Of a stretch of DNA of 64,000 bases, positions 538-59,597 are shown piece after piece; the first letter of the stretch is position 1, and the number at the start of each line of letters is the position of its first letter. The notes beneath the pieces were generated by a model. The model ran no database searches. It was not told the origin of the DNA and was given only the letters and a program-made list of their open reading frames with translations. Position numbers and translations under genes: made by a program. Origin of the DNA: a virus (Duplodnaviria > Caudoviricetes); IMG/VR virus record IMGVR_UViG_2907208306_000002, positions 1 through 64,000 of that record. One strand, 5' to 3'.

Positions 538-598
538 TAAAACCCTTATAAATAAAGGAGTTTTTAACTCGTTATTCTTAATGAAATGTCCATTTTAT
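538..598. repeat. Composite site copy 1: 21-bp element plus 18-bp palindrome
   Basis: TAAAACCCTTATAAATAAAGG at 538-558 and ATGAAA-TGTCCA-TTTTAT at 581-598. Same layout as 18263-18323. Confidence 0.85.
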
Positions 599-649
599 TT
601 TTCCCCCAGGCAACATGCATAAAAACTACGCCTTGCGGCGCTACGCGGA

Positions 650-889
650 TTACAATATATCATTGTACCCTTTTTCATTATCGGGGTCGCTATCCCTAAT
701 TGCCTGTTTTACATCCACCCTGTTTATTAATGCAATTTGAATCACGTCTCCGAATAACTGCAAAAAAGCTGTGACTGGAGTATAAATACCGTAGTAATTA
801 ATTCCGTCATTCCAGGCTATAGATTCTCCTATAATTGGCATCTCACCAACTAAATAATTTCCTCTTAACCACTGTTCAGCTTCTGACAT
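650..889 (-). CDS. Small protein downstream of tail fibre (possible fibre-associated)
   Basis: ORF with GAGGTG RBS; position only. Confidence 0.6.
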   Translation of the reverse strand: MSEAEQWLRGNYLVGEMPIIGESIAWNDGINYYGIYTPVTAFLQLFGDVIQIALINRVDVKQAIRDSDPDNEKGYNDIL

Positions 890-910
890 TATAAAAACAC
901 CTCTCTTTGG

Positions 911-2230
911 TTACTCATAAGCAAAATACGAAACATTATCAGCCACTTTATCATTTCTGTTGTTTGACAAAAAGAGACTTGAGTTATTGAAACCTACGCC
1001 TACATATCCATAATCAGTAATCGCCCCTGAAGGAAAGGTAGTGCCATTTGGGAAAGTCATTTTATAACCGTTGTTGCTTCCTAATCCACTCATATCAAAA
1101 GTTACCATTCCCTGTTTTGGTGTAAATAACAGGGGAATAGACCTTGTCCCTAAAGCCGGAATACTTGAAGTAGTGCCTGAAGCGAATTGTTTGCCAGCTG
1201 CGACTGCAAAGGCATTGTAGATACCAGATGGAAAGTTTTGTACGCTACCAGATGGGACTATGTTAGTTGTAGATCGTTCTGGTAACGTCCCAATTATTAA
1301 CCCCGTGTCTGTGCCAATCGTCTTTCCTGCCCTTACATCACCGGCTACTGCTGTTCCATACTCACCCCCTTCACCCTGTAAGATAAAAGCCGTTCCGTCC
1401 CAGAAAATTGAGTAGACGCTGGCATAGAGTTTAGCATAATTACCATTAGGCTTTTTTATTCCATATGCCGTACCACCATTAATTTTAAGAGTTGGTGTCG
1501 TCGAACTTGCAGCATTAAATTTAATAGTGAATTTTTGGTTAGAATTTATTGCTTCATTTGTTGAAATGCTGTAAACATCCCCGACATTTGTAGTCGTTCC
1601 TAGATGTGGAACATGTTTTGAATTATCCGCCACATGTGTGTCTACTTTGTCATTGACTGACTTAAGGGCATTGGCCGTCGGAGCTTGAGTAATTGATGTG
1701 CTGGTTGTAGTATTGTTAAGTTGGACTACGCCTTTTTGTGTCGTACTGGCGTCCGGGATTGATATATTATTTACTTTACTATTGACTTCGTTGACCGCAT
1801 TTACGAGAGATGTCTTATTAATTGTTGCCAAATCACCCATTACGCCGATATCGTTACGAATTTGTCCTGCGGTAGTCCCATCCATATAATCAATAATATT
1901 TTGCTTCTTTTGTTCGATTGCTATTAACGCTGAATCTTTGCTATTATCTATCTCTTTTTGCTTGTCTGTTATATATCCCTCTACATTGTCTCTGATGAAC
2001 ACTTCCATATTAACTAGTGCATCTTGAAATTTATTCCATTCATCTGCAGCCATCAGCTTCGAGCGTAATTGAGTAGTTAAATTTCCTAATTCGGTTTCTT
2101 CAGAAGGCGTTCTATTCGATTTAAGCTTCAACTCTTGAAATCGCTGTATTGCTGGGACGTCTGATGCTAATATTTCGGTTTTGAACTGAAAGGAATCAAT
2201 TTGTCCTGGGAAGCTTGAAAAACTTGCCAT
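911..2230 (-). CDS. Tail fibre / receptor-binding protein
   Basis: DASTTQKGVVQL tail-fibre repeat, coiled N-terminus, position between baseplate and holin. Confidence 0.85.
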   Translation of the reverse strand: MASFSSFPGQIDSFQFKTEILASDVPAIQRFQELKLKSNRTPSEETELGNLTTQLRSKLMAADEWNKFQDALVNMEVFIRDNVEGYITDKQKEIDNSKDSALIAIEQKKQNIIDYMDGTTAGQIRNDIGVMGDLATINKTSLVNAVNEVNSKVNNISIPDASTTQKGVVQLNNTTTSTSITQAPTANALKSVNDKVDTHVADNSKHVPHLGTTTNVGDVYSISTNEAINSNQKFTIKFNAASSTTPTLKINGGTAYGIKKPNGNYAKLYASVYSIFWDGTAFILQGEGGEYGTAVAGDVRAGKTIGTDTGLIIGTLPERSTTNIVPSGSVQNFPSGIYNAFAVAAGKQFASGTTSSIPALGTRSIPLLFTPKQGMVTFDMSGLGSNNGYKMTFPNGTTFPSGAITDYGYVGVGFNNSSLFLSNNRNDKVADNVSYFAYE

Positions 2231-3069
2231 TAAACAACCTCCTTAATATTCATATTAACTAGATCTATTTCCTTATTTGTCTCCAAATAAAAAAACTCCT
2301 GAAAGTTTTCGGGAGTAAAGTTTTTCTTTCCATATATTGAGTGAAATTTATTGTGTATTTCTTTGTTTAATGGAACGCCTAAACCATAATTAAAATTTAT
2401 TTCAGCACATACCTTTTTTAGATTTTCTAATTCATACTCACTGTAAAGACTAATGTCATTACATATATTTAGTTTAAGACGACTAACTGTTTCGTTTATG
2501 ATAGAAGCAAAAGGGTAAAGATGATGAACAATCAGATCTTTTGAGGTATTGCTTATTATACATTTATATTTAAATGAAAATAGACTTTTATTTTTCCAAT
2601 CATCTAATATTGATGCGCGTAAATAATGATTTAAGTTTGTAGTTCCTGTCCAATTCGGATGATTAGTACCAGACATTAAAGATAAAGTTTCCTTTCTTTT
2701 GCATCCACATGATGTCGTATGTCCAGATGATATATCGTAAGCAGCCACTTCAATTATGTTTCCACAGGAACATAAACATTTCCAAAGAACACCATTTGAA
2801 CTTCTATTTTTAGTTTTTTCAATTACTGATAATCGCCCAAATATTTTACCATTTAAATCTAAAGATCTTCTTTCCGATGTTATTTCTCGCTTTAAGCAAC
2901 CACAGGAATTTGTTAGACCACTAATTAGACTTGTTGATGCAATTTCTTTTATTTTCCCACAATCACAAATGCACTTCCAATGAGCGCCTTTTTTCTTTTT
3001 AACTTCAGATAGTTCTATCGCCACTAATCTACCAAATCTCTGATTTTTAATATCTCTAATTATCCCAAT
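2230..3069 (-). CDS. HNH homing-endonuclease-like protein with FGRL..WKCxCxCG repeats
   Basis: Two FGRL/WKCxCxCG/SCGC repeats plus C-terminal LIVHHL...HNKFHSIYG. Frame is open to ATT at 3069 behind a GAGGTG RBS. Confidence 0.8.
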   Translation of the reverse strand: MGIIRDIKNQRFGRLVAIELSEVKKKKGAHWKCICDCGKIKEIASTSLISGLTNSCGCLKREITSERRSLDLNGKIFGRLSVIEKTKNRSSNGVLWKCLCSCGNIIEVAAYDISSGHTTSCGCKRKETLSLMSGTNHPNWTGTTNLNHYLRASILDDWKNKSLFSFKYKCIISNTSKDLIVHHLYPFASIINETVSRLKLNICNDISLYSEYELENLKKVCAEINFNYGLGVPLNKEIHNKFHSIYGKKNFTPENFQEFFYLETNKEIDLVNMNIKEVV

Positions 3070-4076
3070 TAAACCACCTCTGCGAAAATATTCATGTCAC
3101 TAAAAATTTGTTGAATGCATACAAAAAAACTAGTCCCAGTAACTATTAGACTAGTGTTGTGTGAACGGTATCCAAATGCATCTTTAAAAACGTGAAATTT
3201 ATTATCTTGACTCCAATACTGCAACGATATCGTCCCATTGATACCTTTTATAACGAAAAGATCTGTGTCCGGTTTTATATTAGTCATCCAAATTTTAATT
3301 GTGAAATCACCGCTTAAACTAAATCCCTCAGAAAAACTAAAAGTATCATCAGTTAGATCAATGAATTCGCCACTAAGATATATTGGACTCTTTGTAGTAG
3401 AGCCTATAATTTGTACAGTATTCCAGGAAATCTTCATTCCCGAATTATCAACATTTTCAGCAGTTAAATTAACCTTGATGTCTGGCTGCTGATACTGTAC
3501 TTTAAATTGTATTAGCCCAGTAGTATTTGTTAATCCTTTTGCGCTGGTTGCCTGTGTTTCTATGTAATATGTGTTTCCACTCTGTAAATTCTCAATTAAT
3601 AAACTAATATCTGGATTAGTACTAATTGGTGACTGATAAATCTTATTCTTGTTAATGTCATATAGATACATTACCCATGATCTAATTGCAATACTTTCTA
3701 GCTGAGTATATGTTGCCGTAAAAGAGTAGGAGGGCGAACCTACAGTATCAATACTATTCATTGTTACCACTGGTTTACTTGAAGTCTGAAATATATCAAA
3801 ATCCGATGTAATTGAAGAGTTAGATTGATTCCATATAATAATCTGTATTTTGAACTCAAGACCATTGGAAATTGAGTTCTTAGGTACAACGTGGTTTTGA
3901 GCATAAGAAGTTATCTTGTTACTATCGTACACGAGTGCATTATCTGCATTTTTGTAGATCTTTACTTGGTAGGCTACGCTTAGATCGCCCGAAACTTGCC
4001 ATGAAACTAAAATAGGATCAGCACTGTCAAGTGTCTGACCTCTGATATTAATATTAAATGGTTTTTGTAATGCCAT
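3069..4076 (-). CDS. Baseplate/tail-tip protein (beta-rich, FN3-like)
   Basis: Position; VSWQ..YQVKIY and LQSGNTYYIE FN3-like patterns. Confidence 0.65.
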   Translation of the reverse strand: MALQKPFNINIRGQTLDSADPILVSWQVSGDLSVAYQVKIYKNADNALVYDSNKITSYAQNHVVPKNSISNGLEFKIQIIIWNQSNSSITSDFDIFQTSSKPVVTMNSIDTVGSPSYSFTATYTQLESIAIRSWVMYLYDINKNKIYQSPISTNPDISLLIENLQSGNTYYIETQATSAKGLTNTTGLIQFKVQYQQPDIKVNLTAENVDNSGMKISWNTVQIIGSTTKSPIYLSGEFIDLTDDTFSFSEGFSLSGDFTIKIWMTNIKPDTDLFVIKGINGTISLQYWSQDNKFHVFKDAFGYRSHNTSLIVTGTSFFVCIQQIFSDMNIFAEVV

Positions 4077-4088
4077 TTATTCACATCC

Positions 4089-4370
4089 TTAAATTCCACG
4101 TTTACATAAAGCAAACTTATCCTTCGAATCACCGTTAACGAAAATTACATAAATATGATCGCCAGGTTTAAAGGCGACATCAGGATTGCAGGGTATTGTT
4201 TGTGATGATGTCGAGCCATCGATAAACACATTGATCTTTTTAGTACTAACTATTGAATCAACAGTCCCCAAGTGCCATTCTCCGCTTAATAAGCCTAAGT
4301 TTCTTATTTCAGTTCTGACTATTTCAGATATTAATTTATATACATATTCTTTTCCATTTGATTCGTTCAT
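4089..4370 (-). CDS. Small baseplate spike-like protein
   Basis: GTVDS..FKPGDHIYVIF OB-fold-like pattern; position. Confidence 0.55.
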   Translation of the reverse strand: MNESNGKEYVYKLISEIVRTEIRNLGLLSGEWHLGTVDSIVSTKKINVFIDGSTSSQTIPCNPDVAFKPGDHIYVIFVNGDSKDKFALCKRGI

Positions 4371-5561
4371 TTAAGCCTCCATTGGAATGAAGTCCCAGTT
4401 ATCAATAACTTTTCTATATTTAATGCATTCGCAACTCATCAAATCAGGTTTAAGAGGAAGCGAAAAACTTTCTAATAAATACTTTCCTGAAACATTGTTC
4501 TCTGGATCATCGATTTCAATGACATCATAAACGTCATGGAGATAGTTAGGACTAATGGATAGGGATAGTTTCTCTGCGTAACCTAATCTCGCTCGCAATT
4601 CAAACTTAGCCCTCCAGAAACACTCATCTTTGGTTGTTAGAAGACCATCAGGATTACCATCATTATGAAGGTAAAGGATGTCGCCCAGTCTTTCTATGCT
4701 ATAAGGACTATCTTTCCAGATGGTTTTCGTCTCAGTGACAACTAATTCATAACTACAAGTGGCGGTTTGAGAAGAGCCTCCACAAACATAGATATGATTG
4801 GCTAATTGGGACTCATCCATTTTTCTAACATTTCCAGCGTAGAAACGTTCGTTTGGATCATTATACTTATATGACCACGTTACTGGCTGGGAGTCAAAAT
4901 CATTAAGATCAATTTTCTTTAATCTTAAAAATCCAAAGACATCGTAATATACTTGGCATTTTGCCAATAATGCTAAGTCTGATATTGCTTGATACAGGTT
5001 GTCATTCGGTTGATAAGTTAATGTATAGGGAACGGTTTCCGTTACCGTATCAAAGTTAAATTGAGTCTCACCCGTCTTGGCTGCAAGAGTTTTAATTGCT
5101 GTACCAATATTTACTCCAACTTCAACGGTGGTTTCAAACTTAAATTTTCCTCGCTTATCTGTGTAAAGAAACATCTTATCTTGACCCGAGACAACTGTCT
5201 TCTTACCGTCTTGTGTGTGGCTATCTTGTGGTTCAGACAGTATAAATACACCTTGTGGTATATATTCAATATTTCCGTTTCTTAATTTCAGACCTGTATA
5301 GGTCTTAACACGTTTATCAATCCAAAGAAGCTTATCTTCGCCCCAAGTGAACTCATTGTTCTTATTTAATAGAGTAAAGGAAAAATTCCTACGAATTGGG
5401 CGAGAAGAATCCACAGAAATTGAACCAATATCATCATTTGTAATCTGCTTTGTAAATTCATTTATGTAATTCATCTTTGAGTCATAGAACTCGAACTTTA
5501 AAAACGCTTGTTTAATAGGAGACTTCATTGCTGTGAGAAAATCTTGTGAGCAAGGGATCAT
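4371..5561 (-). CDS. Baseplate hub/tail-tip protein (YomG-like)
   Basis: GSISVD..RRNF, IPQGVF, YYDVFGFL motifs; position after distal tail. Confidence 0.7.
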   Translation of the reverse strand: MIPCSQDFLTAMKSPIKQAFLKFEFYDSKMNYINEFTKQITNDDIGSISVDSSRPIRRNFSFTLLNKNNEFTWGEDKLLWIDKRVKTYTGLKLRNGNIEYIPQGVFILSEPQDSHTQDGKKTVVSGQDKMFLYTDKRGKFKFETTVEVGVNIGTAIKTLAAKTGETQFNFDTVTETVPYTLTYQPNDNLYQAISDLALLAKCQVYYDVFGFLRLKKIDLNDFDSQPVTWSYKYNDPNERFYAGNVRKMDESQLANHIYVCGGSSQTATCSYELVVTETKTIWKDSPYSIERLGDILYLHNDGNPDGLLTTKDECFWRAKFELRARLGYAEKLSLSISPNYLHDVYDVIEIDDPENNVSGKYLLESFSLPLKPDLMSCECIKYRKVIDNWDFIPMEA

Positions 5562-6427
5562 TAAATAACCCCTTTCACATAATCTTCGTAGTTGCCAATC
5601 TCCATGAAATCAAAAATTATTGTTTTATAATCATAATCACCCCATGTATTTTGAGGAGAAGTGGCTCTAGGGTTACTAATGTCGCATACAAAAACTCTTC
5701 CATCATCAGATTTAACTAAGAAGGGTTTATGATTATAAATAAAATTGTTTAAAACCTCTTCATAATCAAGCCCTGATCGACTGAAATCTTCTGGAATTAA
5801 AACGGTAGAGAGTGAGAAAGATTCGTAATTTTTTTCTGAATAGAATACAGAAGGATACTTACTCAATGTCTCGATGACAGTTCTACCTTGATTCAATTGA
5901 GTTTCAACTTCACCAATTTTATCAATAGCTTGATCAAATCCGAGCACATTGTTTGTGTCTTTATCTACAACCCACCAACCAACAAAATCTGATTTCGCCT
6001 GAACTTCAACTGCTTTTCCGTCTAACATATTTTCAGCAAGTGGAACAATGCTATAAATTAAGTCTGTATTGGGTTGCGTATAGTCCGTATATTCAATCTT
6101 TACGTTGTTTTGAAAGGGGACAGTAGCAAGCGTGTATGAATTCAATTCATTTGCTTTTCTACGCTTAATCATAAAGGATACAATTTTCAATCCATTATTA
6201 TTGATATTCCCTCCTTCAAGGTCGCCCATGAATTTGAATATCGCACGAGTATCAATTTGCCAATCTTCTTTTTCTTTTGTAGTGGACACAGTTGAGTCTG
6301 TGGCTTCACGTATCTCTAATTCATCATATACACCATTCTTTAATTCTCCATAAAAGATGTCTTTTACTGCACTTCCAGGACTTCTGAAAAAGTGTGTCCC
6401 ATAAAAGTCATATCCCATTATTGCCAT
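5561..6427 (-). CDS. Distal tail protein (YomH-like)
   Basis: Directly follows TMP; TLSKYP and KPFLVKSDDGR motifs. Confidence 0.65.
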   Translation of the reverse strand: MAIMGYDFYGTHFFRSPGSAVKDIFYGELKNGVYDELEIREATDSTVSTTKEKEDWQIDTRAIFKFMGDLEGGNINNNGLKIVSFMIKRRKANELNSYTLATVPFQNNVKIEYTDYTQPNTDLIYSIVPLAENMLDGKAVEVQAKSDFVGWWVVDKDTNNVLGFDQAIDKIGEVETQLNQGRTVIETLSKYPSVFYSEKNYESFSLSTVLIPEDFSRSGLDYEEVLNNFIYNHKPFLVKSDDGRVFVCDISNPRATSPQNTWGDYDYKTIIFDFMEIGNYEDYVKGVI

Positions 6428-6444
6428 TTAATCACCGCCAATTT

Positions 6445-6480
6445 AAAAAGAGTAAGGAGGGGAGAGTGCCCCACCTTACT
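6445..6480 (-). terminator. Intrinsic-terminator-like hairpin at TMP stop
   Basis: AGTAAGGTGGGG-CACTCT-CCCCTCCTTACT followed by CTTTTT on the minus strand. Confidence 0.6.
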
Positions 6481-9400
6481 TTCTATTTGAAGCAATATGT
6501 GTTTCTAAACCTTTGAAAAATTCCATTGGGTTATTTGCTTTTACCGTAATATCGCCAGAGAATGTATAACTTGTTCCTGAGTTCGTTGCAACGGTTGGAG
6601 TATTTAAGCGAATATTCGACATTGTGTTTTTAATTCCGCTTGTAAGTGATTCGATAATTGCTCTAGGTTGAGTAATAATATCCTTTAGTTTCTTTTTATG
6701 TTCTTCTGTTAATACTAACTCTCCTAGTTTAAGGATGGCAGGAACTTCACCCTTAGCCAGAGGTTCTTTCCCGACTTCTCCTCCAGTATGGTACTTCCTT
6801 GTTTTAAACGATGCATTATACTCAATTGCTGCTAACGTCTCATCTGAGATTTTATTTCCGTCGATACTTACTAAGTTATTGATGTAATCTGCAGCAGCTT
6901 TTCCTGCAGATGTCGAGGTGTCGATCTTAGAAATAGCATCAGATTTTGCAGACGAGAGTGACCCAGAAGAACTTTTGGAACTTGAACTACCTCCAGACCT
7001 TGATCCTCCACCACCAGACGAACCAATGGAACCCATAGAAGCAGCCAAAGAAGCCATCTGAGCATATAATGCTTGCAGTTGTGATAACTTAGATGATACC
7101 TCACTAATATAAATGTCCCATTTTTGAAGCGATGAAGCTTGCCAGCCATCAACCACCAATTGCAAGAGTTTAGATCCTTCGTCAGCAGAAATAGAACCAT
7201 CCTCTAATCCCTTTTGAAGCGCTTCTTGAAATTGAGTTAATTTAGCTTGTGTATCAGTAACTGATTGTTGATAAAGCGATGAGAGACTGGATTGATACAA
7301 CTTCATTGCCTCAAGATTTTGCTGATGGATTTCTTTTGTCCTATCTAACTTGTCTTGAAGAATTTGTATTGTATCATTTTTCTCTTTCTGCAAACGGTCG
7401 ATTTCATCCTGAATTGCTTGCTTAACATCATCTCGCTCATATTGTTTAACAAGATCGTCTTTTTGTTTCTCTAATTCATCAACACGGGCTTTATCATAAG
7501 TTAAAATCTCTTCGCCAGCTTGGTTGATATATGAAAAACGTTTATCTTTTTTAACTTTATTGATCTCATCGTTAAGTTCTTGAAGCTTCTTGATTCTGTC
7601 TTCCTTGTTGTACTGTTCATCAAGATTTTTCAATATCTCTTGTTGCTTTTCAATTTGGCTGTCATAATACTTCCCAGTATTGTTAATATAATCTGAAATT
7701 GCATCTTCTTCTTTTTGATATTGCAGTTCAGTATCTCGAATTGCATCGTTCATATCATTAATCTTGTTTTTTAAATCAGCGACAAGATTAATTTGTGACT
7801 TAATCTGATTGCTCAAGTCAGACATATTGCTAAAGTTTACATCGCTTAAATCTATTGTATAGTTAAGTGCAGTTTTTACTTCATTGGCAATATCTCTAAC
7901 TTTAGATGCATAGTCCTGAAGATTGGAACGAGTTTGAGAGGTAGTATCTACAAAGTTAACACCGCCACTAAATACTCCATCAACTTTATCTAGGGAAACT
8001 AAAATTGAATCAACGGAGTCATCAAACTCACCAGCATCGAATATTTCTCCAAGATCGAGAGAAGACTTCATTCGGTCAAATACGGTCGTAAGCTTATCAC
8101 TTGCCATTTCATAAAGTGACTTTGTGACATCTTTTATGGACTTGTCGTAATTGACCATATCAATAGTTAGTTGTTGTATTCTTTCACTCTTAGTTTTATA
8201 CTGGTCACTTTCTTTGGGAAGTGTGGAGAGTTGTTGTAATGCTAATGTGAGCTCCTCATTCGCTAATTCTTTCTGTTTACTGATAAGAGGAATTTGTTTC
8301 ATTAGTTCATCACTATACTCTGAAGAAGATTCACTCATGAGTGAGAGTTTAGCTGATGAAATTTCAAGTTGGTCTCCAACACTATTAATTTTACTTACAT
8401 ATTCGTCAAGTTGGCTTTCTCCAATAGCAAATATCTTTTCCTGTTTTTGCTGTTCAATTTCGATCCATTTGCGACTATTGTCAGCAATTTGTTTATCAAA
8501 TTCTCCAGAAGTTATTTTCTTATCATTAACAAGTTTTTTTATGTTGTCGTTGCTTGCATGCAACTCTTTTTGCTGATCTTCTAGTGCTTTGATTTGAGTT
8601 TGCTCTTCATTGCGCCATTGTTGAGATATTTGAGAATATTTAGATTGTTTTGTTTGAGAGTTAGCAATTAGCGTATCTAGGTTTTCGAGCTTGCCCTGAG
8701 ACTCTTTTACAAAATCATTGATGTAGGCAATACGATTCTGATATTGCTTTAATTCATTATCAGATAACTGTTGTTCAGCGTCTGCCTTCGCATTAATTTT
8801 CTCACTTTGTGAAGGATTCTTGGTTGATGTCTTCGTGCCGCTTGAACTCGAAGAGGCGGAAGATACACTACTTGAGCCACCACCACTAACAACTCTTCTT
8901 GCTCCATCGTATTTATAAGTTTCCGTCCATGTTTTACTGTTTAGATTTTGTTCACTCAAACCATGGTTGCCCATTTGGAGGAACTTGCCGTTTCCAGTAT
9001 AAACACCAACATGCGAAGCCGTCTTTCCAGTGGTATTAAAGAATACGAGGTCACCAGGCTGCAAATCCGCCTTATCGACTTTAGTACCTGTTTTAAATTG
9101 CGCAGCCGCTGTACGGGGGAGATTTACATCTGCAAACTGCTTAAACATCTCCTGAACAAACTGAGAACAGTCAGAAAGTGCTCTGTTTACAAACTGGTCA
9201 TATGTTCCCTTGAATTCGCCGGTAATTTGTTTATAAGTAAGTTTTCCTTGAAGTCCTCTGCCATTAGCTATCAGATTATCGATGCTTGATGAAGGAGCAG
9301 AAGAATTAGAGGGAGCGCTATTGGAAGTACCAGACGGAACTTTAGTTGAAGTTGTAACCTTTTGCGATACGAGTTTTGAAGGATCGGCAATTCCTTCTTT

Positions 9401-12400
9401 TAAAAGCTCTGCTTGTTGTTGCAACAGTTTATTTTCTTGCTCAATTGAGTTTCGATATTCCTTCGAACCTTGTTTTAATCTGGATCGTTTATTATCTAGG
9501 TCGCTCAATTCTTTTTTAACTGCAGCCAATCTCTTTTGAGTTTCGGTTAGAAGTTCATTAGTTTCGCTGATTGTATCGTTTGATTGCTTTTGTTGCTTAT
9601 CGGCTTGAGCTGAGGTAGCGGAAAGATCGCTCCTAGCACCTTTAAGAATGTTTAATTGAGTCTCAAGACCATTTAAATTGTCGATCTCAGCTTGAAGAGA
9701 CAAACTTGTTGTATCTCCAATGCGTCTAATGCCAGCGATTTGCCTTTCTGCTTCGCGGTCAGAAATTTGTCCACTAGCAACCATTTCATTAAGTTCATCA
9801 ATACGCTGATTAACTCTTTCTTCGCTTACCTTTTTAAGTGCATTATATTCTTCTTCGAGGGCAGCAATTCTAATTTTCGAGTTACTGATTGCGGACTCCG
9901 TTTTCTTGATTTCGCTATCAAAGAATTCAAATTTTTCTTCTTTTTTTGCTTTAAGGAACTCAAGAACTTTATCTTTACTTAGCCCAGTAACTTTAACAAA
10001 ATCACCATACATTTTATTCAGTTTTGAAACTGTGCTAGTTGATAACGTATTATTCTTAGATAGTTCTCCCTGAGCATCGGTCAATAGTTCAATTTCTGAC
10101 TTAGAACTAGTAATGCTCTCGGCAAGTTTATCGAAATCAGTCGAAGAACCTTGAACAAGATTTGAAATGCTGTTATTAGCGGAGTTTGCTTTCTCGGCAA
10201 TATTATTCAGGCTATTGATAATCTCTGAATTACCCTGAATAGAAGGAATCTGTTTAAGCTCATCAACGACTGCCTGAATATTGCTTCCATCGAAATTACG
10301 AACGACATTTTGAATCTCGACCATACTTTCTTGGAAGTCTTTCGTTGGTTGGGATGAGAAGACACCAGTTAAATTATCAAACAGTTTTGTTTGCTCGTCA
10401 GTGTAATTTTTAACTGCAGCAGATTGCGTCTTGAAAGTATTGATTACTTTTTGATTGCGAAGACTCTCACCATCATTAATTTTGTCCATTAAAGGCTGGA
10501 TTTCGCTAATCTTACTTTCAACCTGTTCCAGAGCCTTTAACCATTCTTCATTTGTTTTGGGTAATGTGCCCATGCTACTGAAGAAATCTTTATAATCATC
10601 TACATTAAGCTTATTGTGGTTGTAAATTTTGTCCTGCAAATCAAGCAAGGTCTTATAATATTCAACCAGACTCATATCCTTAGCTTTAAATGCAGGATTG
10701 TCAATAATTTTATATCCGCCTTCAGCAGAACGATTACTTAGTTTTCCACTCAATACAGGCGATGCAAACTTTTTATCATTGAGCGCGTTGACGATAATGT
10801 CATTGGACTTAATTTGTTCATCTAATTTCTTGCCACTTAGACCTTCAATTAACTTTGCTTGTTCTTCATATTTACCATTAACTAAATCGATTCCTTTGGC
10901 CTCTTCACCAAAACTATCAATCAATTGGCTCTGTAATTCAAACATCTTATCCTTGACGTTCGCGTCCGTTTCAATTGCATTGTGGTTTTCTTTATAATAC
11001 GAAGATACTTCATCTAACGTGCTAGAAAGTTTTGAGTACTTATTGTCGGTATCATCAATCAATTGCTTAGTTTTTTCCAATGAACCGTTCCAATTAGATG
11101 AAACAGTATATAATACTGAAATCCCCGTAGCAATAAGTCCAAATAAACCCAATGCTCTCTGTAACCCGGTCATCGCAACAGCTGTAGTTTCAGCTGCGGT
11201 TGTAGTTGCTTGAAGGGCGGTTCTTGTTGTAAATAATGCAGCAACTGCGGAGGAGAGTGAGGTTATGGTGGATGCTACCGCTTTTGATTTAAATGTTAAG
11301 AAAATTCCAGTAGCTAATATGAGAACATTTCCAATATCACCAAAAACTCCTACTAGCTTTGTTCCTAGATCAATAAGCGATTTTAACCAAGCCGAATCGA
11401 TACTATTACTCCAAAATTCAGATACAGTGTTCTTAAACACAGCAACATGGCCCTGCATGGATTCCATGTATTTTTCATTTTCTCTAGCAGCAGATCCAAA
11501 TGAATTTAATCCGGCCTGTAAAGCTCCTTCAGCATCCTGCCAGTTGTTCAACATACTTGCAACAACGTTACCTTGTAGTTTGCCAGCTACTAATTCCAGG
11601 ATATCGGCACGGTTGAAATCAGAGAGGGTACCCCATACTTTAGCCAAGTCACTGAAGATATCATATGTACTCTTAAACGTATTATCATTTTTCTTTAGTG
11701 TAAGACCAATGGAATTAAATTTCTTTTCCATTGACGGTAACAATGCAGTTAGATCTTCGCCATCTTCTGAGACACCACGAATACGCATAGAGACGGTTTT
11801 GAGGGCATTTCCGACTTTGGCGGGGTCCTGTACTGTCGAATTGGCAGCGGTAATCATGGCTACTGACTCTTCAATAGTGTTACCAGCCTCAGATAAAGAG
11901 GAGGCCGAACGCTTCATTGCTTCACCAATACCGGCAGAACTGATTGCGAATTTATTACCAACTTCATTGTAGACATCGACAACGTGTGAGATGTTCTTTC
12001 CTTGATTATCAACCTCGACACCAAAACCCTTGATGGTTGCAATGAGTGCCTCAGATGCGTCCTCAGCAGTTTTAATATCGCCAACATTTTGGTATACGGT
12101 TGTCTGCTTGGCTAACTGCTGAGATTGTTGAATAGTATAGCCCAATCTTGCCCACATAGTCGTAGACTTAATAACATCAAGTGTTAATGCACCGATTTCA
12201 TTTGCCGTGTTAGATGCTGAGTCGATAAAACTTTTATAAGTTGAATCTGTCTCGTCAGTTACCTTTTTCAGGTCGGTCATTGCAGTATCTAAATCATAAA
12301 CATACTGAATACCATTTTGAAGTGCGTGAAGCGGAGCATATATAGCCGTAGCAGCTACCATCCAGATCGGGAATTTCTGCATTGCAGTCGACAGTGCTTC

Positions 12401-13438: not shown

Positions 13439-13517
13439 TACGTATATCACTTCCTTTTTATAATAAAAAAAGAAGCGATATAAGATCGCTTCTTAAGTTG
13501 AGAATATGAAGATTTTT

Positions 13518-13579
13518 AAAAACACTAAGCAATACTGTAGAGATCTTTCTTAACCTCTATAGTATTGCTTAGTGTTTTT
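13518..13579. repeat. 25-bp-arm inverted repeat (1 mismatch, 12-nt loop)
   Basis: AAAAACACTAAGCAATACTGTAGAG / CTCTATAGTATTGCTTAGTGTTTTT. Confidence 0.9.
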
Positions 13580-13623
13580 CATAAAAAAACCACTCAATAT
13601 TGAGTGGAAAGTAGAGCATATGG

Positions 13624-14121
13624 CTATTGAAAATACTGTTTAATGTTTTTATCTAATATATTCTTTATTGACTGAATATCTTCTGCGGATATTCCCGTGC
13701 TTGAATCAACGGCGTAATCGTCATTTTCATTTTTAGTTAAAGTAGGAGAGCTAATTTTAATTGAATCCAAAATTGTTAAATAAGGTTCAGTTAAATCTAA
13801 CATGAGTTTTGCCTTTTCTAGCTCGTTTTTGTTATTCGCGTCTTCAATGTCTGCTGTGAGAAATTCAATATATTGGGGAATTGGATTTTCTAATTTAATT
13901 TCTCCGGTTTTCTTATCACGATTGTTAAAGGCATCGGATAAACTTACATATAGATCTTTAATCATATCGACGGTGGAATCATCATCGATGGTTTTTGCGA
14001 ATTCCGGTTTTAATTTTAAAGAAGATGAGAAAGATACTTCTTTTGCTTTTTCTTTCGCACAGGCTGACAATATGACCGCAAAGCTCAGAACAAATAACAA
14101 CAAAAATAATTTAGATTTCAC
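13624..14121 (-). CDS. Lipoprotein (possible superinfection-exclusion moron)
   Basis: GTG start after GAAAGG; signal peptide MKSKLFLLLFVLSFAVILSAC with lipobox. Function inferred. Confidence 0.75.
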   Translation of the reverse strand: MKSKLFLLLFVLSFAVILSACAKEKAKEVSFSSSLKLKPEFAKTIDDDSTVDMIKDLYVSLSDAFNNRDKKTGEIKLENPIPQYIEFLTADIEDANNKNELEKAKLMLDLTEPYLTILDSIKISSPTLTKNENDDYAVDSSTGISAEDIQSIKNILDKNIKQYFQ

Positions 14122-14250
14122 AGAGTTCAACCTTTCATCTGTATGATAAGAACAGTTTATCATAATTAGTGGGGAAATATGCCATCTAATTAATACGGAT
14201 GAAAGGTGAATGAGTCTCAGTTTATTTTTGATATTATTTATGCAAACTCA

Positions 14251-14297
14251 TGTCTATATATAGTGTTTGAAAATTATATAAATACTATATATAGACA
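14251..14297. repeat. 18-bp-arm inverted repeat
   Basis: TGTCTATATATAGTGTTT / AAATACTATATATAGACA. Confidence 0.85.
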
Positions 14298-14324
14298 AGA
14301 ATTCTTGATAAAATGATAGTTTTA

Positions 14325-15779: not shown

Positions 15780-15820
15780 ATATCCCCCACCTATAACCTT
15801 ATTCGATACGCTATGTATCG

Positions 15821-15850
15821 ATCATATCCTCTGGTGGCTTATTTTGTCAA
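15821..15850 (-). promoter_or_regulatory. SigmaA-type promoter of the Wzy-like gene
   Basis: TTGACA-18 nt-TATGAT on the minus strand. Confidence 0.55.
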
Positions 15851-15856
15851 TTAATA

Positions 15857-17875: not shown

Positions 17876-17881
17876 TCGTCA

Positions 17882-18160
17882 TCACGCTCCATACTTACCA
17901 GACCATTTGTAATCGATTCCGACTTCTACTATGACAACAGATTCAATTAACGCATCATTGTCATTAATCTGGAACCCTTGGTCTGCATCGAGCACATTTT
18001 TATCTTTTCCATTAACAATTACCGTGCAGGCTTGGGAGTTAAGAAAAGAGAATTCATAATATTTGCCTCGGGGTGAATTCCACCTTGCATCAATGACAGG
18101 GAGGACTTCTTGATTTGCAGTTGAAGTACCTTTATCGCTTCTAATACCCAGACTGATCAT
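17882..18160 (-). CDS. Small beta-rich protein preceding depolymerase
   Basis: ORF with GAGGAG RBS. Confidence 0.65.
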   Translation of the reverse strand: MISLGIRSDKGTSTANQEVLPVIDARWNSPRGKYYEFSFLNSQACTVIVNGKDKNVLDADQGFQINDNDALIESVVIVEVGIDYKWSGKYGA

Positions 18161-18262
18161 TCATAATACAACTCCTCAATATAAATTGTTATTTAAAAAC
18201 AGGAGAGAACCAGAGGAGTCTTTGCTTGAAGTGAACGCTCTCGCCTATTAAAATCAAAAAAA

Positions 18263-18323: not shown

Positions 18324-18324
18324 C

Positions 18325-48546: not shown

Positions 48547-48566
48547 TTCAATCAATAAAACAACTA

Positions 48567-48595
48567 TATACATAATATGAATTACGTGCTATAAT
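48567..48595 (+). promoter_or_regulatory. Repeated early promoter, class 2
   Basis: TATACA-N17 (TG extended)-TATAAT; also at 56040-56068. Confidence 0.6.
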
Positions 48596-48638
48596 TAAGT
48601 ATATTCAAAAAACGGATAATACATAGGAGGTTGTTAAA

Positions 48639-51272: not shown

Positions 51273-51333
51273 CCGGGTCATTGTTAGATAGATAACATAA
51301 TGAAATGCGAATTTTATAAGGAGTTGAATACCC

Positions 51334-51608: not shown

Positions 51609-51652
51609 TAAATAAGTAATTGAAATACTCATTTTATAAGGAGTTGAATGAG

Positions 51653-51841
51653 ATGAAAGTTTCTCAATCCAAAGTATTGCACAAAGAAGGCTCTGTAAGA
51701 ACTAGAGTAGTATATCAAAATAAGAAAGGCTACTACTGTACCGTTGAAGCAAAACGAATATATTTAATAAAAGAAGACGGAATAGTTAATGAGGGGATTT
51801 CAAAAGGGATACAATATGAATTCAAGGAAAATAGCTTATAA
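51653..51841 (+). CDS. Small hypothetical protein bounded by palindromes
   Basis: RBS after 51620 site; stop inside 51838 site. Confidence 0.65.
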   Translation: MKVSQSKVLHKEGSVRTRVVYQNKKGYYCTVEAKRIYLIKEDGIVNEGISKGIQYEFKENSL

Positions 51842-51891
51842 AAGAGTGATTTTATAGTGATATGAAAAATTAAAAATTGGAGGAATTTAAT

Positions 51892-52293
51892 ATGAACACC
51901 GATTCCGTTAAAGCGAGAAGTTTATTAAAAACAGCAAAGCAAGATATCTTAAAAATGTATGGATGGACAGCAAAAGATTATTCTGCACGTATTTCAGAAA
52001 CCAAACAAGGGTTGAAGTTGAATATTAAGTTATTAGTTCCCAGAAAGGGATTTAAAACAATCTGTGATTTTTTGATTGATAAAGTAGGCACAAGACACAG
52101 CCATGTAGATGTTATGCATAAGTCAGTTTTATCACAGGTTGAGTCTATAATTGAACAGGAAGTTGAAAAGGGCATTGATTATGGTTCAATCTCCAGTATG
52201 GACTGGATAGTATATTCAACAGAGGGTTCTAGAAAAGTACAGAACTCGACAATTAGATTTATGAATAGTTTATATGATTACTCAATAGCTTAA
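51892..52293 (+). CDS. Hypothetical protein
   Basis: GGAGG RBS before ATG at 51892. Confidence 0.65.
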   Translation: MNTDSVKARSLLKTAKQDILKMYGWTAKDYSARISETKQGLKLNIKLLVPRKGFKTICDFLIDKVGTRHSHVDVMHKSVLSQVESIIEQEVEKGIDYGSISSMDWIVYSTEGSRKVQNSTIRFMNSLYDYSIA

Positions 52294-52349
52294 TTAGTGA
52301 ATAAAATTCTTGTTTCATTAAAATAAAAATAGGCAGGATAAGAATACTT

Positions 52350-52613
52350 ATGATTGATTCAAAAATTATCATGATGATTCACAATGAAAAAGAGAGCATT
52401 AAGCAAAAGCAAAGGCAACTACTCATCAAATATGGATTCGGCAAGCATTCCAGAGATATTGATAAACAAATCACAGTGTCATTCTTTAGAATGGCAGAGG
52501 AGAGTCAAGAGGATTTAAACTCCTTCATTGATTTAGAAAAGGAATATGTTTGCTGTAACAGTAGGTTAGTTAGTTTGAGGATGAGTAAGCGTGAAGTATT
52601 AAATTCAAGGTAA
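52350..52613 (+). CDS. Hypothetical protein bounded by palindromes
   Basis: Between 52301 and 52610 sites. Confidence 0.6.
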   Translation: MIDSKIIMMIHNEKESIKQKQRQLLIKYGFGKHSRDIDKQITVSFFRMAEESQEDLNSFIDLEKEYVCCNSRLVSLRMSKREVLNSR

Positions 52614-52703
52614 AATGCTTATTTTACCAAACATCATTGCTCAAGCATCTAACGCTAACATATAATCAGAGTGGATAAATTAACTCTGGAGGCTCATAAA
52701 CTC

Positions 52704-53695: not shown

Positions 53696-53890
53696 ATGCA
53701 CAAAGTGACGTTGACCAACGCCGAAATAGCCGAATACACTAAGAACCGCCAGGCAATCCGGGACAGTCGAACGCGGTTTGAGGTACGATATCATACCGAA
53801 ATGTGTCTCGGTATTTTGCAGCGTGGCCGAAACCGGTACATAGATAGTTTGGAACATGAGATTACGGAATCAAGTAGCGATGATATTTAA
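53696..53890 (+). CDS. Small hypothetical protein
   Basis: AGGAGG RBS; followed by 53891 site. Confidence 0.6.
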   Translation: MHKVTLTNAEIAEYTKNRQAIRDSRTRFEVRYHTEMCLGILQRGRNRYIDSLEHEITESSSDDI

Positions 53891-53914
53891 ATAAAGCAAC
53901 GATTTTACAGAGAA

Positions 53915-55989: not shown

Positions 55990-56097
55990 ACCCAAATAAG
56001 GAACCTTAAATATAGGGGTTCCTTTTTATAAAATAAATATATACATACAATAAATTGTGTGATATAATTTAACTAACAAATCAAAGAGGTGAAGAAA

Positions 56098-56256: not shown

Positions 56257-56481
56257 ATGGAGTTAATGATTACAACTGAGTCAATTTTTTCAAAGTTAAG
56301 TGATGATGATCTTCGTAAAGCTTTTGCGGAATATGAAAACTGGAGAGAAACAGGGGTTCTACAGGAAGGAATAATCCGTAGAGCACATGAAGAACTTCAA
56401 GAAGTAAATGGATATTCGATTATGATTCATTCTCTAACTGAACCACTGTTGTACGTGATTATCAAAAGACTGATAAAATGA
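56257..56481 (+). CDS. Small hypothetical protein
   Basis: Stop lies within 56473 palindrome. Confidence 0.6.
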   Translation: MELMITTESIFSKLSDDDLRKAFAEYENWRETGVLQEGIIRRAHEELQEVNGYSIMIHSLTEPLLYVIIKRLIK

Positions 56482-56518
56482 TCCTTTTATTCAAATAAAT
56501 TAGATAAGGAATGATACT

Positions 56519-56896
56519 ATGTTGAGCAGAATTAATAGATTTGATGAAAAGGTGAAGCTAGAAAACACATATAAAGTAAAAAACGATCATTATATTGTTG
56601 AGATAGAAATTAAAGAATTTGCAAATATCTTTGGTATTGATGTTGTCTATACAGAGCGCAACCTGCAAGAAGACGAAAGTCCACCACAACTTACAGTCAA
56701 TATTAACTTTAACAAAAAGTACACTTCTTATAATCCGTTTATTAAAATGCTTGAGGTCAGTGGAAGTTATTTGTTCGTCGATGGTATTTTGAAATTCGAA
56801 CGGTTTCCACAACTTAAAGAATCCAAAGTGCTGATGTTCATTACTACTATTGATCATTTGGAAGCAGAGAATTTAAAGAAACCAGTAAGAAAATAA
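56519..56896 (+). CDS. Hypothetical protein bounded by palindromes
   Basis: Between 56473 and 56893 sites. Confidence 0.6.
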   Translation: MLSRINRFDEKVKLENTYKVKNDHYIVEIEIKEFANIFGIDVVYTERNLQEDESPPQLTVNINFNKKYTSYNPFIKMLEVSGSYLFVDGILKFERFPQLKESKVLMFITTIDHLEAENLKKPVRK

Positions 56897-56926
56897 AATG
56901 AATATTTCATAAGGAGGAGGATTGTA

Positions 56927-57445
56927 ATGAAATTTAAGGATATCAAACCATACATACAGTGCAATAACTATTCTGTTGATGTTTCTTTGAGATATCTTGA
57001 AAGCACCATAGATGAGTATATTGAAGAGATGGGTTTGGAATTAGATCCAGACTTTCAAAGAGGCCATGTTTGGACGGAACAACAACAAGAGCTTTATATA
57101 GAACATTTGTTGCGCGAGGGTGTCTCAGGGTTAGACATTTACTTCAATCATACTAAATGGCAAGGAACAGAGGGAAAGGGGGATGGATGGTTCGTGTGCG
57201 TTGATGGGCTACAACGTCTTACGGCATGCCTTGGATTCCTTAGAAATCAAATTAAAGCATTTGGTCACTTTTACGAAGACTTTGAAGATAAGATTCCAAT
57301 GATGATACGCTTGAGTTTTCATGTTAATAACCTTCAAACTCGTAAAGAAGTACTTGAATGGTACTTACAGATGAATAGTGGCGGCACTGTTCACAGTCAA
57401 GATGAGTTGGATCGAGTTACGGGATTATTGGCAGCTGAGTCTTGA
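56927..57445 (+). CDS. Stand-alone DUF262 (ParB/Srx-like) domain protein
   Basis: PDFQRGHVW, VDGLQRLT, MNSGG motifs. Confidence 0.8.
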   Translation: MKFKDIKPYIQCNNYSVDVSLRYLESTIDEYIEEMGLELDPDFQRGHVWTEQQQELYIEHLLREGVSGLDIYFNHTKWQGTEGKGDGWFVCVDGLQRLTACLGFLRNQIKAFGHFYEDFEDKIPMMIRLSFHVNNLQTRKEVLEWYLQMNSGGTVHSQDELDRVTGLLAAES

Positions 57446-57479
57446 TAAAAAGATTATTTTATGAAGAGATGAGAATTAT

Positions 57480-57644
57480 ATGAAACTCATATCTAAGCAA
57501 TTGGTTAAGATCGAGGAATACGCATACGATACACAGGAAGAATGTAATGAACATGCTAAGAAGATGATTCACGATGGCTTTGAGATAAGAATTAAATATC
57601 ATGATGTGTATCAATATTACAGAGAGTACGCTAAGTGCAGCTGA
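57480..57644 (+). CDS. 54-aa hypothetical protein
   Basis: Fills the gap between 57445 and 57643 sites. Confidence 0.5.
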   Translation: MKLISKQLVKIEEYAYDTQEECNEHAKKMIHDGFEIRIKYHDVYQYYREYAKCS

Positions 57645-57674
57645 TATAAGGTTCTTTCATAAGGAGATGATTAT

Positions 57675-57863
57675 GTGAAGAAAGTGAAAATCAACATTGA
57701 GAACGTGGACTTTGGTGGTATTTCAAAAGATATTGAGAGAAAAATTAGAAAAACTCCAGAGAAGATATATGATGTCGTAAAGGTTGAAACTGCTACATAT
57801 CCAATAACGTTGGAAGGTATTATGTATAGATTTAAACAGAGTGAATTGATCGTAATCGAGTAA
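57675..57863 (+). CDS. Small hypothetical protein
   Basis: AAGGAG RBS. Confidence 0.6.
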   Translation: MKKVKINIENVDFGGISKDIERKIRKTPEKIYDVVKVETATYPITLEGIMYRFKQSELIVIE

Positions 57864-57893
57864 AAAACTATTTTATAAGGAGATGAGAAAGAT

Positions 57894-58136
57894 ATGGCAT
57901 TTCTGGAGGGTAAGAATGTTGCCCCACGATTAGCAGTTGAGTCAAAAAAGTTGGTTGGTAAGCGCGTAAGATATCTAAGATCTCAAGATATCGATAAATC
58001 AGGTCGAGGCCATTTCTTTCCACGTACAGGTATTGTTGAAAGCATATATGGTAGGAATATAATGCTGGATAATGGCATAGATATCCATTTCAGCGATATT
58101 GTTGAGTTGGTTGTAATAAATGATGAAACAGAATGA
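57894..58136 (+). CDS. Small SH3-like hypothetical protein
   Basis: AAGGAG RBS; stop inside 58133 site. Confidence 0.65.
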   Translation: MAFLEGKNVAPRLAVESKKLVGKRVRYLRSQDIDKSGRGHFFPRTGIVESIYGRNIMLDNGIDIHFSDIVELVVINDETE

Positions 58137-58165
58137 AAGGATTCATTTACTGGGAGTTGAATTAG

Positions 58166-58536: not shown

Positions 58537-58716
58537 ATGGATACATACGATATCGTTGTGAATAAACAAGTGGTGGAAAGCATCCCTCAGCAAGGACGCT
58601 GCAGAGAGGCTATGAGCTTCATTATTATGGACAGGGTGTACAAGCTTACAAGCGAATTCAAAACGTATGTAGAGGTCTACAGCCGCAAAACAGGAGGGGT
58701 TTACCGATATGTTTAG
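58537..58716 (+). CDS. 59-aa hypothetical protein
   Basis: GGAGG RBS. Confidence 0.6.
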   Translation: MDTYDIVVNKQVVESIPQQGRCREAMSFIIMDRVYKLTSEFKTYVEVYSRKTGGVYRYV

Positions 58717-59116
58717 GGGAGGCAAATAGATTAAAGGAAAACTGTATGTTCGAACTCCTGGCTCTAATTGGGTGGAATTAAAATTATTAATTAGGAGGGA
58801 GTGAGGGAGTATTAAAGCCATTAGCGACCTACAAAAACAGCGTGATACCCTAGCAATGTTGTATAATTTAAATTTACAGTCAACAACTGAATTAGAGTTA
58901 GAAGTCATAAAAAATGAAATTAATGATTTAGACAGAATGATCTCAAAATATCTGTTGAAAATGATAGATAATACTGTTCTTGACTTACCTAGTATTGTAA
59001 GATATTAATAACTCGGTTAGATAACGATATGTATTAACACCAATTGAAAATTAAACCGATATAGGCGATCTAAGCTCTTAGGTCGTCTATATTTTACAAC
59101 TTAGGAGGAGCTGCAG

Positions 59117-59368
59117 ATGGTGAAATCAAAGACTCCCAAAAGGCCGACAAGGGACGAATTTGTGTTAGAGGAGTTAGGTAATCAGCTTACAGAGGCTTAT
59201 CAAGAGGAATCGCAAATTCAGCTTACTGTGTGGGCCTGGGAAGAGCCGGTAAGAGGACAGATTGATAAAATGGACTCCCGTACGGGGAAAGTGCACATCA
59301 AGAAGGATGGAATCATTACCAAGGTTCCGTTCATGGACATAATGGAAGTTAACTATCCAAGGGATTGA
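59117..59368 (+). CDS. yolD: YolD-like protein
   Basis: RPTRDEFVLEELGNQLTEA..LTVW..G.I..MD pattern; size. Confidence 0.7.
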   Translation: MVKSKTPKRPTRDEFVLEELGNQLTEAYQEESQIQLTVWAWEEPVRGQIDKMDSRTGKVHIKKDGIITKVPFMDIMEVNYPRD

Positions 59369-59420
59369 TTGTTCAATAAAGGCTGCTATATCCTATATAA
59401 ATGGAGGATGGATTATTAAT

Positions 59421-59576
59421 ATGAGCGAGTTTTATAAAAACCTTATGAGGGGACTTGGAGTGGGCTTTTCTATTTTAATAATTTTTATCCTCTTACTCCT
59501 TATTATGGAGTTTGTTTTTAGCAGTTCTTTATTCGATGATTTAACAACCTATTTATATAGATTGGCCTTAAAATAA
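59421..59576 (+). CDS. 51-aa single-TM peptide
   Basis: GGAGG RBS; hydrophobic core. Confidence 0.55.
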   Translation: MSEFYKNLMRGLGVGFSILIIFILLLLIMEFVFSSSLFDDLTTYLYRLALK

Positions 59577-59597
59577 CTATTTATATGGAGGAATACG

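Follow-up and report, generated by a model that had tools for sequence, protein, structure and literature searches.

An 18-bp palindrome at gene junctions

The window analysed here comprises the first 64,000 nucleotides of the virus record IMGVR_UViG_2907208306_000002 (IMG/VR; Duplodnaviria, Caudoviricetes), and the element in question is an 18-bp palindrome, RTRAAA-N6-TTTYAY, in which inverted arms flank a centre of six variable bases (N6). The window lies in a ~131-kb region (C11, ~466000-597500) whose GC content is low (35%) within a 7.9-Mb genome of 52% GC, and the gene content of this region, which includes a YonO-like RNA polymerase, a tape measure protein of 2320 amino acids and an MrpR-family protein, agrees with an SPbeta-like Paenibacillus prophage. 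The 18-mer is a real element that recurs throughout the clade to which such phages belong. A first-pass annotation had listed 12 exact matches in the window, all of which are present, and had missed four further exact ones inside coding sequence. The sites are as follows (no strand assigned; RBS, ribosome-binding site; G147, G168, G331 and G357 are prophages compared below).

581-598: exact palindrome, centre TGTCCA; left boundary of the tail/host-range module; centre, order and orientation as in G357
14308-14325: exact palindrome, centre TGATAG; touches the 3' end of gene 14325-15779
18306-18323: exact palindrome, centre GATGGA; right boundary of the 17.7-kb module; centre common to G357
20570-20587: exact palindrome, centre TAACTC; overlaps the stop codon of gene 20584-21018
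36614-36631: exact palindrome, centre TTATAG; overlaps the stop codon of the HU-like gene 36628-36906
51300-51317: exact palindrome, centre TGCGAA; right arm adjoins the RBS AAGGAG
51620-51637: one-mismatch copy (left arm TTGAAA); RBS directly after
51838-51855: exact palindrome, centre GAGTGA; left address of a one-gene slot; centre common to G147 and G357
52301-52318: exact palindrome, centre TTCTTG; right address of the 51838 slot; centre common to G147 and G331
52610-52627: exact palindrome (GTAAAA/TTTTAC arms), centre TGCTTA; overlaps the stop codon of gene 52350-52613
53891-53908: one-mismatch copy; immediately after the stop codon of gene 53696-53890
56473-56490: exact palindrome, centre TGATCC; left slot address; centre common to G147, G331 and G357
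56893-56910: exact palindrome, centre TGAATA; stop codon within the left arm, RBS adjoining the right arm
57445-57462: exact palindrome, centre AGATTA; centre common to G147, G331, G168 and G357
58133-58150: one-mismatch copy; overlaps the stop codon of gene 57894-58136
2574-2591, 6350-6367, 28946-28963 and 39962-39979: exact matches within coding sequence, status uncertain

The 16 exact copies in the window compare with 0.58 ± 0.87 in dinucleotide shuffles, which bears out the enrichment over chance supposed in the first-pass annotation, and the whole prophage carries 37 copies as opposed to 12 in the remaining 7.7 Mb of the genome. When the spacer was varied from 0 to 20 bases across the prophage, six bases gave the 37 copies and any other length 0-3, while everted and direct arrangements of the arms occurred at background level only. 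The arms are thus inverted and copies are in excess solely at N6, which is the geometry of a tyrosine-recombinase core site, as had been recognised at the outset. The four in-gene matches in the window outnumber the 0.6 that chance would produce, and a conserved centre is also found in certain in-gene sites elsewhere, such as the one at 88944, which is common to G357.

Relaxing the pattern yielded a modest excess of one-mismatch copies (36 versus ~20) and no excess of two-mismatch copies over expectation. Therefore, of nine degenerate copies that had also been proposed, the three with a single mismatch (51620, 53891 and 58133) are plausible, and the other six are unsupported: those at 59568, 18180, 36528 and 62045 have at least three mismatches each, the one at 57859 is an N5 or two-mismatch variant, and the one at 57643 has the right half-site only. 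The statement that every junction between 56.5 and 58.2 kb carries a site went too far. The variant at 57860-57876 reads GTAAAA-AACTA-TTTTAT, has five central bases where an N6 site would be expected and is directly followed by AAGGAG; together with the half-site at 57643-57660 it may represent a decayed site.

The palindromes are strongly concentrated at gene junctions, as claimed. In the prophage, 30 of the 37 site centres lie outside coding sequence, which accounts for all but 12.5% of the region (binomial P = 4e-21), and within the window the same holds for 12 of 16 (binomial P = 2e-8). Both features of the layout noted earlier are also frequent: the upstream stop codon often falls within the left arm (offsets -4, -9, -1 and 0) or just ahead of it, and the right arm often runs directly into the RBS, its end being 13-36 nucleotides from the next start codon. 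Sites are likewise found at convergent or divergent junctions and within genes, and they are distributed over both arms of the prophage rather than beside either of its recombinase genes. Of the co-directional junctions in the early blocks, only 28-44% have a site when up to one mismatch is allowed; the site is thus present at only about a third of junctions, which does not fit the array of one gene per site that had been envisaged.

Strong conservation is confined to 6-7 bp per arm, and a weaker outer symmetry, cTTG...CAAg, is present in about half of the sites. The symmetry holds on both strands and extends to the first and last centre bases and to the outer cTTG/CAAg, which points to double-stranded DNA being read by a symmetric protein assembly. 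The fixed position between stop codon and RBS, with the right arm adjoining the Shine-Dalgarno sequence, could also suggest an RNA-level signal, i.e. a small AU hairpin or a protein-binding motif in the polycistronic mRNA for processing, translational coupling or initiation. We consider this highly improbable. Positions 3 and 16 do not covary, and A.C is as common as G.U on the sense strand; moreover, six A-U pairs would be too weak a stem, yet 27 copies are present in phage E3 of the thermophilic Geobacillus, and an RNA hairpin was rejected on both points. The symmetry on both strands, the copies at convergent or divergent junctions and in genes, and the position-specific conserved loops, which have no obvious RNA rationale, argue in the same direction.

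Promoter readings were rejected as well. A sigma-A promoter or extended -10 element is contradicted by the lack of a conserved -35 and by the RBS adjoining the right arm; no -35/-10 elements are tied to the sites, and the prophage promoters are separate elements. YonO initiates the SPbeta late operon from one promoter (PMC5467207), and a YonO late promoter was discarded since the palindrome, unlike this single start, is found mostly in early regions.

Distribution among phages

The palindrome is specific to a clade of large siphoviruses that infect Bacilli (genomes of 105-170 kb) and not to a host. The N6 form was counted 15 times in SPbeta and 16-22 times in four further B. subtilis SPbeta relatives, while the Paenibacillaceae prophages G147, G331, G168 and G357 contained 49, 54, 26 and 53 copies, respectively. 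The Bacillus phages FADO, PBC2 and vB_BcoS-136 had 30, 20 and 18 copies, Geobacillus E3 had 27 and a Staphylococcus SPbeta-like phage 12, with Lactococcus 949 showing the motif weakly (7). In the motif-rich relatives, control counts at other spacers or in the everted arrangement were 0-5. A scan without prior assumption returned ATAAAA-N6-TTTTAT as the top palindrome with 6-mer arms in five of seven genomes. The layout is tightest in FADO, where the order is stop codon, ATAAAA-N6-TTTTAT, ACAGGAGG and start codon, with 12-14 nucleotides from site to start. Exact sites with the same centre (TCGCTC/GAGCGA) were observed in two distant phages, at FADO 111644, where the copy is inside a long gene, and at vB_BcoS-136 123120 (loci L054 and L081).

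The palindrome is absent from further large AT-rich phages that infect the same hosts: there were no copies in SPO1 and BSP21, two in phage K (one per terminal repeat), one in A511 (versus two for the control) and six in AR9 (versus four). A motif for a host factor was rejected on this basis, and the absence from these five phages makes it more likely that the reader of the palindrome is encoded by the phage clade than by the host. The same result bears on the notion that the palindromes are pseudo-dif sites for XerC/XerD-type recombinases of the host, as in pdif modules and other elements that exploit Xer. Such sites would share the arm-6 bp-arm geometry, and Xer enzymes are universal in the hosts concerned, but the motif would not then be expected to be missing from the large AT-rich phages just named, which share these hosts. 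The palindrome arms are also unlike those of a presumed B. subtilis dif sequence, which itself had no match in the present genome at up to three mismatches. We therefore give the pseudo-dif explanation very little credence.

Megablast comparison of 50-60 kb with phages returned no close DNA relative, and across the genomes of sixty relatives one host-like gene was the sole DNA match. The nearest prophage found, G357, was located through protein similarity (its YopP-like recombinase is 84% identical). A literature search returned no description of the 18-mer, the 1999 SPbeta genome paper (Lazarevic et al.) being outside its reach.

The centre is a positional label

The 6-bp centre, which had been treated as incidental, turned out to be the most informative part of the element, since it is unique within each genome, asymmetric and conserved according to map position. 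The 295 exact sites of 11 genomes include no case of a centre that recurs in its own genome, versus an expectation of 4.9 (P = 0.005), so that no two sites of one genome match. Only one of the 295 centres is self-complementary, versus 6.4 expected (P = 0.0125). Between genomes, by contrast with the ~1.9 shared centres expected by chance (an estimate from the per-pair rate), 16 of the 37 centres of the present prophage are common to G357, all of them collinear and in the same orientation. The eight centres in common with G147 are all collinear and in the expected orientation (P < 0.0005), and so are the 18 of 18 that G147 and G331 have in common, their orientation likewise being conserved.

This sharing is not accompanied by similarity of the surrounding sequence. 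About nine of the 16 centres in common with G357 lie outside any blastn similarity (the centre of the 36614 site, for instance, is found in G357 though its flanks show none), and four coincide exactly with a homology-block edge. When the flanks of shared-centre sites were compared directly, identity was at random level, and the adjoining genes were mostly non-homologous. At shared sites, 28% of the R/Y positions in the arms differ, from which 14% identical centres would be predicted, as opposed to the observed 16/37 (P = 1.2e-5). Only one near match was found among the remaining centres, so centres are either identical or unrelated. Sharing fell to chance level in comparisons with G168, FADO, SPbeta and E3, which limits the map of addresses to a sub-clade rather than the whole group.

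Breakpoints and exchanged segments

Joints between relatives were mapped in five SPbeta-group genomes, using blocks of at least 88% identity. Block starts cluster at -1 to +1 of the first palindrome base (23 cases) and block ends at -3 to +3 of the last base (26 cases). In the alignments, unrelated sequence extends up to the site and gives way to near-identity from the first site base onward, or the reverse. The breakpoint comparison asked for in the first-pass annotation thus shows that homology blocks begin or end at the edges of the palindrome. A given site can accompany either side: SPbeta 83687 (TGTAAG) goes with the downstream block in comparison with phi3T and with the upstream block in comparison with SPbetaL4. 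Per genome, 9-13 of ~120 breakpoints lie in palindromes, compared with 0.5-0.8 for random positions and 5-8 for random gene junctions; the sites are therefore real joints, though they account for only about a tenth of the total. Between G147 and G331, a more distant pair, the ratio of synteny breakpoints to intact junctions is 17:3 at junctions with a site and 63:60 at those without (P = 0.006).

In the present prophage, homology with G357 ceases exactly at base 598, the last base of the 581 site, and resumes exactly at the first base of the 20570 site, in both genomes. Between these points, the segment from 581 to 18306, which encodes tail-fibre, tape-measure and depolymerase functions, measures 17.7 kb here and 14.6 kb in G357, with 6% similarity, and the segment from 18306 to 20570, with a recombinase gene and an HNH gene, measures 2246 bp here and 1041 bp in G357, with 0% similarity. 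Smaller units behave in the same way. The slot 51838-52301 is 445 bp here and 265 bp in G147 between the same two centres, with no similarity, and the slot 56473-57445, 954 bp long here, shows 0% similarity to its counterparts in G147, G331 and G357, which measure 382, 1695 and 844 bp, respectively; at its right end, a homology block stops 3 bp from the end of the 57445 site. Slots with the same pair of addresses and unrelated content are also present within the SPbeta group (Goe13, L8 and phi3T). Gene 56927-57445 is at a different address in G357, so contents can move too.

The module 599-18305 has conserved neighbours on both sides, and it looks like a swap of a host-range module with base-exact ends. 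A terminator-like hairpin, AAAACCCTTATAAATAAAGGGTTTTT, is located at 540-570, 18265-18295 and also 94917-94947 (L085), ~13 nucleotides upstream of the palindromes at 581, 18306 and 94958, forming composite terminator-plus-site units, two of which (581 and 18306) bracket the 17.7-kb tail module.

The first-pass annotation had likened the system to an integron, in which a phage recombinase would excise, insert and shuffle single promoterless genes as circles within one genome. Some single genes do show the layout site-RBS-ORF-site, an open reading frame (ORF) between two sites (51838-52301 and 56893-57445), one gene has the changed address just described, and two intact recombinases are present. 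However, tyrosine recombinases need matching centres, and no two sites in any of the 11 genomes have the same one, nor does any gene lie between direct repeats of one centre, which leaves shuffling within a genome very unlikely. The units that are exchanged range from one gene to the 17.7-kb tail module and so depart from a single-gene array, and the 18-bp sites have neither an attC-like fold nor covariation, with no recombinase gene beside an array in the manner of attI/Pc.

Candidate readers

Three proteins with a recombinase fold or its signature come into consideration as readers of the palindrome.

40253-41293 (+): YopP-like tyrosine recombinase, 346 amino acids; candidate reader
18519-19541 (-): second tyrosine recombinase, intact by its residues, 340 amino acids; unlikely reader
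64042-65052, just outside the window (L084:42-1052): MrpR-family protein, Pfam MrpR_N_CB and MrpR_C_cat

The YopP-like protein matches Phage_integrase (PF00589, 8.9e-16) and a SAM-like N-terminal domain (PF02899, 1.6e-07) in Pfam, and its catalytic residues are R161, the GKGGKK hairpin (188-193) with its K, H253-x-x-R256, H274 and Y283/Y284. Homologues are present in nine of nine motif-rich phages compared, and the set R, K, H-x-x-R/K, H and Y is retained across 12 phages; a sequence search of the PDB with the protein gave no match at 1e-3. YopP has been described as a conserved core gene of SPbeta-like phages, expressed in lysogeny, with no assigned role (PMC10516654; bioRxiv 10.1101/2021.11.22.469490). 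A homologue of the MrpR-like protein is also present in nine of nine motif-rich phages compared. The MrpR family is without the tyrosine-recombinase catalytic set, in agreement with published work, and SPbeta MrpR is a repressor with a tyrosine-recombinase fold that has been assigned to the element SPBRE (PMC10516654). Since the YopP-like protein keeps its catalytic set, while the MrpR family has none and is assigned to SPBRE, the former would be the best candidate for reading the palindromes.

The second recombinase (Pfam 1.4e-22) has R182, H278-x-x-R281, H304 and Y314 in place. In blastp searches of eight related phages, partial matches of ~100 amino acids were found in FADO, PBC2 and vB_BcoS-136 and none in the other five. 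It is an unlikely reader because it lies inside the replaced segment 18306-20570 and no full-length homologue was found in these searches. The HU-like protein (36628-36906) was rejected as a reader, as it was not found in FADO or PBC2 (blastp, E ≤ 1e-4). Directly after the YopP-like gene (41290-42955) are genes for a RecD/UvrD-like protein and an HTH_36 protein, and the helicase-like gene has homologues in six of eight related phages compared.

SPBRE, the repeated element bound by MrpR in SPbeta, was derived from the ten published MrpR target promoters (PMC10516654) as ACAAATACAAAWAATATGTATA. This is a different sequence, and the reading of the palindrome as the SPBRE/MrpR operator was rejected. 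The 15 palindromes of SPbeta, in excess at N6 only, are mostly at places other than SPBRE promoters. A second repeat, AATAAAATAAATATATACATA, followed ~17 bp on by TG-n-TATAAT, was noticed in the window at 48550-48620 and 56020-56090 and beyond it at 80360-80430 and 116080-116150 (L084 and L086). It is the probable local counterpart of SPBRE and a predicted operator of the MrpR-family repressor at 64042-65052, and its being separate from the palindromes was a further ground for rejecting the SPBRE/MrpR reading.

Proposed addressed exchange between related phages

In a tyrosine recombinase core site, constant inverted arms flank an asymmetric spacer of 6-8 bp, which has to match for exchange to occur. 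The palindromes combine constant inverted arms with a matching 6-bp asymmetric centre and with exchange of the sequence alongside, and the asymmetry is evident from the orientation, which is kept at all of the 16 (G357), 8 (G147) and 18 (G147-G331) common sites. By this logic they are probably tyrosine-recombinase core sites, and we infer that exchange is site-specific rather than driven by 18 bp of identity. On balance, we favour the view that the palindromes are addressed crossover points for module exchange between related phages. Two related genomes would meet by co-infection or by superinfection of a lysogen, and recombination would take place between sites with the same centre in the two genomes, possibly through the YopP-like recombinase (40253-41293) as candidate enzyme. 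Genes or modules to one side would thereby be exchanged, with gene order and the tight stop-site-RBS junction preserved. A fuller version of this proposal, which we put forward more tentatively and hold to be less probable than not, is that the phages carry natural, genome-wide heterospecific sites, 40-50 per phage, with 6-bp addresses shared by the population, at which the YopP-like recombinase swaps genes and modules, including tail/host-range ones, while their order is kept.

Several observations weigh against addressed exchange. Only ~10% of the mosaic breakpoints in the SPbeta group are at palindromes, the excess over randomly chosen gene junctions is only 1.6-2 fold, and in G147 and G331 both sites and breakpoints concentrate in plastic early regions, which confounds their association. 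The strongly conserved 6-7 bp per arm are short for a core site, given that recombinase monomers bind arms of about 9-13 bp. The arms are unchanged while the YopP-like proteins share just 24-37% identity, which is unusual for a recombinase and its site, and several members of the family have H-x-x-K in place of H-x-x-R. With regard to the enzyme, MMB025 is without the motif though it has a YopP-like homologue, Sundance has homologues of both the YopP-like and the MrpR-like protein yet is without the motif, and the MrpR-like protein accompanies the motif in the motif-rich phages just as the YopP-like one does, so that co-occurrence does not discriminate between the two. Identity over 18 bp alone could also let phage annealing proteins recombine the sites with no site-specific enzyme.

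Some of these points would be accommodated if the palindrome were mainly bound by a dimeric protein specific to the clade, acting in regulation or in DNA architecture (a silencer, a roadblock, or a recombinase fold that only binds), in which case swaps would end at the site through its conservation and its 18 bp of identity, with no enzyme cutting. The symmetry of the site, including its flanks and the first and last centre bases, the position directly upstream of the RBS, arms that are invariant across very divergent phages and the share of only about 10% of breakpoints at sites are all compatible with such a protein, and so is the presence of an MrpR-family protein in all nine motif-rich phages compared. 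MrpR itself, a recombinase-fold repressor that binds the repeated SPBRE in SPbeta, provides a precedent (PMC10516654). However, a plain operator has no need of a centre that is unique, asymmetric and conserved by position next to arms whose R/Y bases drift; the sites also lack accompanying -35/-10 elements and are located within operons between co-directional genes. In addition, the ten SPbeta MrpR peaks from chromatin affinity purification sequencing (ChAP-seq) are at SPBRE promoters and not at most of the 15 palindromes (PMC10516654). A binding site of this kind therefore seems to us rather unlikely, though the least improbable of the alternatives to addressed crossover points.

The closest described system is that of the PeSL cassettes of T4-type phages (Arbiol et al. 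2010, PMC2839356), where a short conserved intergenic motif is likewise situated in variable regions and indels and replacements between relatives end at it. PeSL elements are longer and combine a terminator with a strong sigma70 promoter; the copies of one genome are nearly identical, and homologous recombination between them releases mini-circles (PMC2839356). The palindrome, in contrast, has 18 bp, is promoterless and never repeats its centre in any one genome, so that corresponding positions of two different genomes would be the partners in exchange.

Heterospecific lox and FRT sites, used with Cre and Flp, are engineered variants with 13-bp arms, 8-bp spacers and proven enzymology. They resemble the palindromes in that the inverted arms are constant, spacer identity decides which partners recombine and varied cassettes are found between the same pair of sites; the palindromes, by contrast, are natural and number 37-54 per genome, with 6-7 conserved bp in each arm and an enzyme that is a candidate only. 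Integron attC sites are 57-141 bp in length and recombine as folded single strands with extrahelical bases and without a spacer match, and their promoterless cassettes are arrayed beside intI, attI and Pc. The likeness consists of recombination sites at gene boundaries and a tyrosine recombinase encoded by the same element, but in size, in fold and in the lack of a single-gene intI/attI/Pc array the palindrome differs from an integron.

SPBRE is similar in that SPbeta-like phages carry it as a repeated intergenic element, with a recombinase-fold protein as its reader (PMC10516654). It differs in its sequence (ACAAATACAAAWAATATGTATA), its place within promoters and its number of about ten copies. 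Boundary or linker sequences at the module junctions of lambdoid phages, reportedly proposed by Clark et al. in 2001 to focus recombination, are likewise short and conserved at mosaic joints, but they consist of homologies at gene ends and have neither a common palindromic core nor centres tied to position.

The mosaicism of tailed phages is usually ascribed either to illegitimate recombination, which is rare and is followed by selection, or to homologous exchange within conserved genes. If addressed exchange is true, a dedicated set of labelled crossover points would constitute a third mechanism, one that the phage itself carries. The clean replacement of accessory genes, or indeed of a host-range module of 15-18 kb, at a stop-RBS junction in these phages of 105-170 kb would thereby be explained, and YopP would gain a testable function. 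If the enzymology holds, dozens of naturally orthogonal recombination sites would become available for genome engineering. SPbeta and its sequenced B. subtilis relatives make each step of the addressed model directly testable.

A gene shared with the host genome

A second copy of the small gene 59117-59368, 86% identical, is located elsewhere in the host genome (C27:210675-210949), and 17 other genomes of the same genus have matches of 68-77%; the gene is therefore likely to be of host origin and carried along by the phage.

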